Source of the DNA: Escherichia phage PhiR68_2
DNA: 49,669 bases
Sequence record: PV340576.1
Direction: 5' to 3' (one strand)
Part shown: in pieces, positions 44,078 to 44,668 of the stretch
Position numbering within the stretch: position 1 is the first letter of the stretch
How the letters are laid out: every line of letters begins with the position of its first letter
Program-made: the position numbers and the translations under genes
Notes under the pieces: generated by a model
What the model was told of the DNA's origin: nothing
Database searches by the model: none
The model's input: only the letters and a program-made list of their open reading frames with translations

Positions 44078-44668
44078 TTATATGTCAGGTGTCTGAAGTT
44101 TTGCTTTGGCTCTTAAAATGGTTTGCCGCGAGGTTTTGAATTCCCGGGCAATGGCACTTATACTTACACCTGACTTAATTCGTTCGAATACCGCCTGTTT
44201 CTGTTCTTCATTTAACACAGGTGGTCGACCAAAACGTTTCCCTGCGCCGCGGGCTCTTACTATCCCGGAATGAGTGCGTTCAAGTAAAAGGTCTCGTTCA
44301 AATTCAGCGACTGCTGAAATTACTTGCATCATCATTTTTCCTGTTGGACTGGTCAGGTCAATGCCCCCCAATGCTAAGCAATGCACTCTGATACCTGTTT
44401 CGGTCAGTTGTTCCACTGTTTTCCTGATATCCATTGCATTACAACCAAGGCGATCCAGTTTTGTCACAATCAATTGATCACCACATTTCAGGCGAGCAAG
44501 CAACCGGTTAAAACCAGGACGCTCACTGGTTGCTGCTGAGCCGCTAATGTGTTCTTCGATTATTTGCTGAGGTTTGATTTTAAAACCTGCACTTTCGATT
44601 TCCCGGCGTTGATTTTCGGTGGTCTGATCCAGCGTTGATATCCGACAGTAAGCAAAAATTTGAGACAT
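44078..44668 (-). CDS. pin: Pin/Hin/Gin-family serine DNA invertase, 196 aa
   Basis: N-terminal catalytic motif [17 protein letters not shown]-terminal [20 protein letters not shown]; adjacent to tail fibre genes. Confidence 0.9.

Follow-up and report, generated by a model that had tools for sequence, protein, structure and literature searches.

Why a complete recombinase gene should stand directly behind the tail fibre genes of a lambdoid prophage, with no invertible segment beside it, is the question raised by pin (44078-44668, minus strand) on the 49,669-nucleotide sequence of Escherichia phage PhiR68_2 (PV340576.1), which at its full length is called the window here. An original prediction, made from the letters alone, had regarded the gene as an orphaned Pin-family DNA invertase that had either lost its invertible segment or acts on sites which escaped recognition. 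The explanation favoured here, with a probability of about 72%, is that pin is the partly disabled resolvase of a fossil Tn3-family mini-transposon inserted downstream of the tail fibre genes, and not a tail fibre invertase bereft of its cassette.

The gene itself is as first described, a complete small serine recombinase gene for 196 amino acids on the strand opposite to tfa and separated by a 97-nt gap from the tfa end at 43980. The protein consists of a Pfam Resolvase domain (residues 4-144, E 2.5e-36) followed by HTH_7 (residues 147-190, E 2e-11), a layout common to Din invertases and resolvases and thus not discriminating between them. With 196 of 196 residues identical to PinQ of the Qin prophage of E. 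coli K-12 (b1545) and 194 of 196 to PinR of Rac (b1374), pin is pinQ; the surrounding 0.9 kb including both flanks matches Qin base for base and differs from Rac at four nucleotides. Both features that delimit the PinQ/PinR orthologue group, an identity of at least 98% and the context stf-tfa-pin-ydfK, are present. A copy is present in 2843 of the 5426 complete E. coli genomes, in nearly all cases with at least 99% identity, and further copies are carried by viable lambdoid phages, among them mEp460_ev081, 2H10 and Tritos; ten lambdoid phage records carry it at 95% identity or more, and the six inspected at the junctions all have the same ones. The 'orphan' arrangement is therefore the normal, already known state of pinQ and pinR. 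What the locus shares with them are the protein, the 0.9-kb stretch (Qin) and the neighbours stf-tfa-pin-ydfK-ynaM, while it differs in its setting, a lambdoid prophage that is largely intact and occupies the DLP12 slot, with an intact methyltransferase gene and a tfaX-like pseudogene beyond.

The closest relatives of the pin protein are not invertases. Identity amounts to only 38% with PinE and 36% with Gin, but to 82-83% with plasmid-borne copies and to 77-79% with TnpR proteins that adjoin a Tn3 transposase (77-84% for these plasmid and transposon resolvases together), so that the 'Pin-family' label cannot be upheld. Within the phage collection, apart from the ten records with at least 95% identity, one Erwinia phage reaches 60% and all else remains below about 45%, with Din invertases at about 36-39%. 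Among plasmid records, on the other hand, 248 homologues are found at 80-90% and 1513 at 60-80% identity, and in the protein database relatives from Enterobacterales and Shewanella form an unbroken series at 77-86% identity; thousands of sequences on plasmids and transposons are closer to pin than the Din family is. Relatives in Shewanella baltica, Hafnia and Klebsiella (77-79%) are located about 160 bp from a divergent protein of about 990 amino acids with DUF4158 and DDE_Tnp_Tn3 domains, which scores 1171 and 1162 bits on the NCBIfam model NF033527 'Tn3 family transposase' (cut-off 500 bits); this is the classic tnpA-res-tnpR layout. The recognition helix points in the same direction, as SRQTILRA of pin is nearly the TRQTILRV of the Tn3-type relatives, whereas Din invertases have VSTLYK.

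With members of the Din family such as Gin of Mu, Cin of P1, Hin and PinE of e14, pin has in common that it is a small serine recombinase whose C-terminal domain is HTH_7, is prophage-borne near tail fibre genes and, as PinQ, has been reported to influence the orientation of the e14 P segment (PMC12529663). It differs in the 36-38% identity, the recognition helix, the lack of 26-bp crossover sites and of an invertible segment and in its reversed orientation relative to the tail fibre genes, since the 3' end of pin faces tfa whereas in e14 it is the 5' end of pinE, together with a pix site, that is directed towards the P segment. A Fis-dependent recombinational enhancer in the 5' part of the coding sequence is a further trait of Din invertases; Fis sites are too degenerate to be scored with confidence. 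With TnpR of the Tn3 family (paradigms Tn3 and gamma-delta) it shares the domain layout; a decayed upstream sequence that overlaps the promoter is homologous to the three-dyad res, and the surrounding sequence shares with Tn3-family elements, in a fossil state, 38-bp terminal repeats of the form GGGG...TAAG and a 5-bp flanking repeat. The window departs from such elements in its degenerate terminal repeats and subsite I, in the Cys at the position equivalent to R71, in having a single res and in lacking a transposase; as its gene list contains no tnpA, the copy is a derivative and not a complete transposon. To the Tn3/gamma-delta resolvase itself, identity is only about 32% (32% for gamma-delta). 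A further relative with 60% identity to PinQ and an intact catalytic Arg was observed in Erwinia phage LS-2018a (L042, 5001-5606) between the large terminase and portal genes; no tail fibre cassette was found at this homologue, which is another insertion of the same resolvase type into a phage, away from tail fibres.

The gene sits within an 834-bp stretch (44035-44868) which is homologous from end to end to an 852-bp element of plasmid p709, composed of a terminal repeat, res, tnpR and a second terminal repeat, with no transposase. One boundary of the element was recognized from CTTAGCGTGGGATATTTTCCGTTTTCCAAGCGGACCCC, a sequence downstream of tnpR common to several plasmids and to three Shewanella copies with unrelated flanks, among which homology stops exactly at its ...GGACCCC end; read on the complementary strand, it is a 38-bp end typical of the Tn3 family (GGGG...TAAG). 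On p709 the second 38-bp end, GGGGTCAGTTTGGAATTCGGAAAATAAACCATGTTAAG, follows about 60 bp beyond res, and the window aligns with this element throughout. The corresponding remnants in the window are the one labelled IRR, at 44035-44069 (plus strand), which matches GGGGTCCGCTTGGAAAACGGAAAATATCCCACGCTAAG in 28 of 35 positions with a 3-nt deletion, and the one labelled IRL, at 44831-44868 (minus strand), which matches GGGGTCAGTTTGGAATTCGGAAAATAAACCATGTTAAG in 26 of 38 positions and has its terminal GGGG altered to TGAG. The former, and thus a transposon end, lies between pin and tfa. The outer GGGG of this remnant is abutted by AGGAA (44030-44034) and the other end of the element by a second AGGAA (44869-44873), a putative 5-bp target-site duplication. 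Five bp is the size of duplication made upon Tn3-family insertion. Known non-autonomous Tn3-derived elements such as TIMEs and mini-Tn3 are likewise short, with Tn3-type ends, a 5-bp flanking repeat and no tnpA; the element in the window differs from them in holding res and a resolvase gene and in being decayed.

Among plasmid records, 142 carry the full mini-element and 1257 have some match to it. In a spread sample of the latter, many, mostly E. coli plasmids, hold only nt 10-112 of the mini-element (H245-H258), that is, a solo terminal repeat with spacer and without resolvase, the copies being about 95% identical to one another. The full plasmid mini-elements looked at for their flanks (L001, minus strand 5844-6695; L040; L041) are bordered by TTAGC on one side and AAGGAAGAC on the other, and the IRR-side flank shares 8-9 nt with the IRL-side flank of the window, AGGAAGAAG (44869-44880), which hints at descent from one junction, perhaps with the two terminal repeats flipped.

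Upstream of pin lie the probable remains of a resolution site. Five independent relatives have three dyads upstream of tnpR with half-sites TGTCCGAAA / TTTCGKACA at differing spacings. In intact copies, subsite I is a near-perfect dyad, TGACCGAAACCG-AC-CGGTTTCGGACA, presumed to be the crossover site, subsite II spans about 32 bp, subsite III abuts the start codon and the -10 element of tnpR is located between II and III. The organization of Tn3 res is well established, and the dyad arrangement corresponds to it by analogy. In the window, all on the minus strand, the putative remnant of subsite III (44679-44697; TGAACACCAATTTCGTATA) lies next to the start codon and aligns with TGTACACCCATTTCGTACA in the copies on transposons and plasmids; it is followed by the -10 stretch of the pin promoter (44698-44709), by the remnant of subsite II just upstream of this -10-like element (44710-44742; half-sites TGCACAAAA / TTTCTGAGA) and by that of subsite I (44756-44782; GCATACGCATTCG-TT-TATTTTCGAACG), in which the left half and the centre are destroyed. 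Over the region upstream of pin as a whole, identity to the plasmid element is 0.65, as against no more than 0.54 for shuffled sequence. No second dyad resembling subsite I and no enrichment of TGTCCGAAA half-sites was found anywhere in the window.

Measured against the intact plasmid element, decay is unevenly distributed. Identity is 83% in the coding region, 92% in the -10 region and 84% in subsite III, but falls to 64% in subsite II, 54% in subsite I, the lowest of any segment, and 68% and 71% in the terminal repeats, so that judged by sequence conservation the parts that would serve transposition and strand exchange have decayed most and those that would serve expression least. The protein bears a corresponding mark. 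The nucleophilic serine is kept (codon 11, 44636-44638, minus strand) within the motif YCRISTLDQ, in which Y7, R9 and S11 are invariant in the alignment, and D72 and R73 are also kept, while the D36 position is Glu throughout the subfamily. Codon 76 (44441-44443, minus strand), at the position of catalytic Arg71 of the Tn3/gamma-delta resolvase, is TGT for Cys where it is otherwise CGT; the full catalytic set in Tn3 numbering (Y6, R8, S10, D36, R68, R71) is consequently not complete in pin. The motif reads KLDRLG-C in the window and in PinR and KLDRLG-R in all nine other aligned sequences, and among 120 cluster representatives Arg is found in 112 and Cys in five, all five of the prophage lineage. 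In Tn3 resolvase, the substitutions R71A and R71K abolish recombination, with cleavage about 1000-fold slower (PMC2794168).

The change is old, as Cys76 is also present in a prophage allele of E. coli 64A:C with 85% amino acid identity and the same stf-tfa-pin-ydfK layout. This second allele (L035, 6680-7591) has a synonymous divergence (dS) of 0.21, and 350 bp upstream of it, covering the res remnant and the ydfK side, are about 99% identical to the window, a pattern which points to patchy recombination or gene conversion within the coding region alone. Compared with one another, transposon and plasmid copies have a ratio of nonsynonymous to synonymous substitution rates (dN/dS) of 0.02-0.08; prophage copies set against those of plasmids or transposons give 0.13-0.19, and the two prophage alleles 0.375. 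Nonsynonymous and synonymous changes number 16:19 on the prophage branch against 5:15 on the plasmid branch; by these sequence measures, constraint on prophage pin is relaxed, not gone. Two further forms of the gene were observed. Cluster representatives P0004-P0008, all on short metagenome or Logan contigs, combine an N-terminal half of plasmid type (Arg at 76) with a C-terminal half of PinQ type and may reflect either genuine recombination between plasmid and prophage or faulty assembly. In strain TW10690 (hit H168), the first 67 nt of pin are fused within a gene annotated nohD, probably the scar of a deletion by which a DLP12-type prophage lost its entire morphogenesis region.

A local substrate for recombination was searched for and not found. 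The core of the e14 pix site, TTCTCCCAAACCAA, has two poor matches at three mismatches in the window where 5.0 are expected by chance; as the same pattern recovers both true pix sites of e14, this negative result is meaningful. The hix/gix core AAACCNNGGTTT gives 22 matches against 24.7 expected, and neither in 39500-47500 nor in the whole window is there an inverted repeat better than chance, so that the systematic scan bears out the original impression, gained by eye, that gix/hix-like crossover sites are absent. Equally correct was that no inverted second copy of the tail fibre genes accompanies pin. A single set is present, with stf at 40328-43405 (plus strand; Pfam phage_tail_N, Phage_fiber_2 and Collar) and tfa at 43405-43980 (plus strand; Pfam Caudo_TAP), both in agreement with the annotation of strain S10, and without an inverted alternative. 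The only other tfa-like stretch is, as had been noted, in direct orientation and carries a nonsense codon: 46584-46737 repeats tfa at 43813-43966 with 82% identity as part of a tfaX-like pseudogene (46584-46751, plus strand) which corresponds to the 3' end of tfa, is unrelated to pin, is interrupted by an in-frame stop codon (46674-46676) and appears under the label pseudogene in the S10 record. This direct repeat was also considered as a deletion substrate for a resolvase and rejected, as it is ordinary homology between tail fibre assembly genes without res-like sequence.

Taken together, a non-autonomous Tn3-family mini-element would have inserted at an AGGAA target in the non-essential DNA beyond the late operon of a lambdoid phage ancestor and subsequently decayed, such that terminal repeats, subsite I and the R71 equivalent became degraded while the promoter-proximal part of res, the reading frame and the DNA-binding helix were kept. 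The 3' end of pin facing tfa and the transposon end between the two argue for such an insertion after the late operon and against a broken host-range switch; the proximity to the tail fibre genes would be coincidental and an invertible tail fibre cassette would never have existed. A resolvase requires two complete res sites in direct repeat on the same molecule. With one crippled res and no second site, neither local inversion nor local deletion is expected. As the recognition helix is almost the same as in the transposon relatives and differs from the one in Din invertases, the pin protein should bind half-sites of the TGTCCGAAA type, some of which survive over pin's own promoter. Tn3 and gamma-delta resolvases are repressors of their own promoters. 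Judged by its conserved helix and altered active site, the pin protein probably still binds DNA and, by analogy, may repress its own promoter, but is probably a poor catalyst; any remaining role would be in trans or regulatory.

Several observations weigh against this explanation. The flanking repeat may alternatively be taken as 7 bp (CAAGGAA), with two degenerate bases of the repeat end included, and as the terminal repeats are degenerate, it is the alignment that decides where the element ends and whether the duplication is one of 5 bp, so that a five-of-five match at a boundary which can be shifted by one or two bases is suggestive and not proof. An empty site, with tfa and ydfK joined by a single AGGAA, was found neither in the 5426 E. 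coli genomes nor in 50,697 phage records, so that the insertion is deduced and not demonstrated, and the intact 852-bp plasmid mini-element has the same flanks in all copies examined and no target duplication, so that its transposition is likewise read only from its anatomy. Uninformative in either direction was STO_Bone1B, where the methyltransferase gene directly follows tfa and divergence begins inside tfa; a scan of genome contigs yielded little diversity, as most of its matches were near-identical copies from E. coli or lay on contaminant contigs. The res subsites were assigned from dyad symmetry and conservation. Furthermore, dN/dS at 0.38 does not reach 1 and the reading frame is uninterrupted despite 15% amino acid divergence, which suggests that the protein is probably still doing something, and if PinQ were to catalyse the inversion of e14 directly, this would contradict the prediction of a poor catalyst.

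This last point leads to the proposal that PinQ and PinR are trans-acting invertases, active on the P segment of e14 or on similar Din-type tail fibre segments elsewhere in the chromosome, inversion of which leads to StfE2 and thereby blocks adsorption of T2. In a peer-reviewed study of 2025, Kirigo et al. reported that overproduction of PinQ from pCA24N-pinQ lifts inversion of the 1797-bp P segment from about 30% in the wild type to 88% as determined by quantitative PCR, that T2 survivors on PinQ-overproducing lawns have the P segment inverted, that deletion of stfP, stfE or e14 abolishes the effect and that T2 induces pinQ; StfE2 from the inverted segment blocks T2 adsorption, and pinQ matters for T2 resistance (PMC12529663). 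With the nucleophilic serine and most catalytic residues intact, and as a function in trans would be independent of origin and compatible with transposon ancestry, direct inversion by PinQ is possible but on balance doubtful. In the same study, the P segment is locked in a pinE single mutant despite the presence of pinQ and pinR, and BLAST detected inversions in e14 only, not in Rac or Qin (PMC12529663). No report of PinQ overproduction in a pinE-deleted strain or of a catalytic-serine mutant was found, so that direct catalysis by PinQ is presumptive. Furthermore, the R71 equivalent is Cys and the recognition helix is of Tn3 type, while e14 has no res-like dyad and pix is unlike the TGTCCGAAA half-site. 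As to distribution, pin is present in 2843 of the 5426 genomes, whereas a K-12-like P segment with pinE is found in at most about 340 records, and in S10, whose sequence around pin is identical to that of the window, icd directly adjoins iraM, which leaves no e14 at the icd site (Din-type segments elsewhere in S10 were not checked); inversion of e14 can therefore not be the general function. Of the assumption that pin acts on unrecognized sites, then, the decayed res directly upstream and the reported trans action on the e14 P segment speak for a part, while a local substrate is lacking. An unreviewed preprint credits pinR with a transcriptional, non-recombination phenotype and was given little weight.

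A functional resolvase acting in trans on the intact res of incoming Tn3-family transposons or plasmids, where it would resolve cointegrates or multimers or interfere with the plasmids, seems improbable. The DNA-binding helix is near-identical to that of the transposon and plasmid copies, relatives bearing an intact res are common on E. coli plasmids and dN/dS is below 1, but Cys76 replaces the very Arg whose loss abolishes recombination by Tn3 resolvase, the target plasmids carry their own intact resolvase and there is no experimental hint of such an activity. Least credible, and very improbable indeed, is the lost host-range switch, in which an ancestor would have had stf/tfa and an inverted stf'/tfa' between crossover sites, as in Mu, P1 and e14, before the cassette was deleted. 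The position of pin next to stf and tfa resembles those systems, and the name 'Pin' and the 36-38% identity to Din invertases might suggest it. Against it stand the 77-84% identity to transposon and plasmid resolvases, the terminal-repeat remnant and direct repeat between pin and tfa, the wrong orientation with the 3' end of pin toward tfa, the lack of any remaining crossover half-site, the identical junctions in the six inspected phage records and the Erwinia phage homologue between terminase and portal genes. Nothing points to a tail fibre cassette ever having belonged to pin, and the suggestion that an invertible segment had been lost was abandoned in favour of the inserted Tn3-family mini-element.

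The source prophage is of the E. coli lambdoid type in the DLP12 slot, beside appY and ompT, with the local gene order J, lom, stf, tfa, pin, ydfK, ynaM, S-adenosylmethionine (SAM)-dependent methyltransferase, tfaX-like pseudogene, appY, ompT, and is 100% identical to strain S10 (NZ_CP010229.1) over the 4.3 kb tested (43000-47300). The genes ydfK (44985-45218, minus strand) and ynaM (45287-45400, minus strand), as annotated in S10 and in K-12 Rac and Qin, are located outside the 834-bp element and are its constant companions in Rac/Qin-type prophages. The SAM-dependent methyltransferase (45766-46434, minus strand) is intact with 222 amino acids; its K-12 counterpart, ybcY, is a pseudogene. In other genomes, the methyltransferase and tfaX-like pair directly follows tfa, without pin-ydfK. 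Homology to Rac/Qin-type prophages stops at about 45762-45775 and homology to the DLP12 type (methyltransferase, tfaX) starts at about 45725; the overlap of about 50 bp (45725-45775) is a hairpin-forming stretch (aaaaccgcagacacgcc...gtgctgcggtt) and resembles a recombination joint of two phage modules. Within stf, 40700-41650 corresponds to a long stretch of the side tail fibre that is rich in Ala, Ser and Thr and is built from degenerate repeats (families D1-D12) spaced 21, 42 and 63 nt apart.

PinQ and PinR are thus known genes among known kinds of elements, and a search of the accessible literature found no link between them and Tn3, so that the reading of their origin may be new. More tentatively, and rather unlikely as it stands, PinQ/PinR would be a domesticated, catalytically altered Tn3-type resolvase which about half of the complete E. 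coli genomes keep for a non-canonical action, either as a DNA-binding regulator or as a partner or modulator of true Din invertases that biases the PinE-driven orientation of the P segment without catalysing inversion itself; if true, the mechanism put forward for the 'first recombinase-activated phage defence' would have to be revised. Annotated in textbook fashion as a 'putative invertase', the gene is carried by about half of the complete E. coli genomes, and of late it has been presented as the founding case of recombinase-activated anti-phage defence. If the transposon origin holds, pin should not be annotated as a tail fibre invertase, its adjacency to stf/tfa would say nothing on host-range switching and the reported inversion of e14 would need controls by which catalysis by PinQ can be told apart from an effect exerted indirectly via PinE. 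For the scanning of genomes in general, a small serine recombinase beside tail fibre genes is by itself not evidence of an inversion switch.

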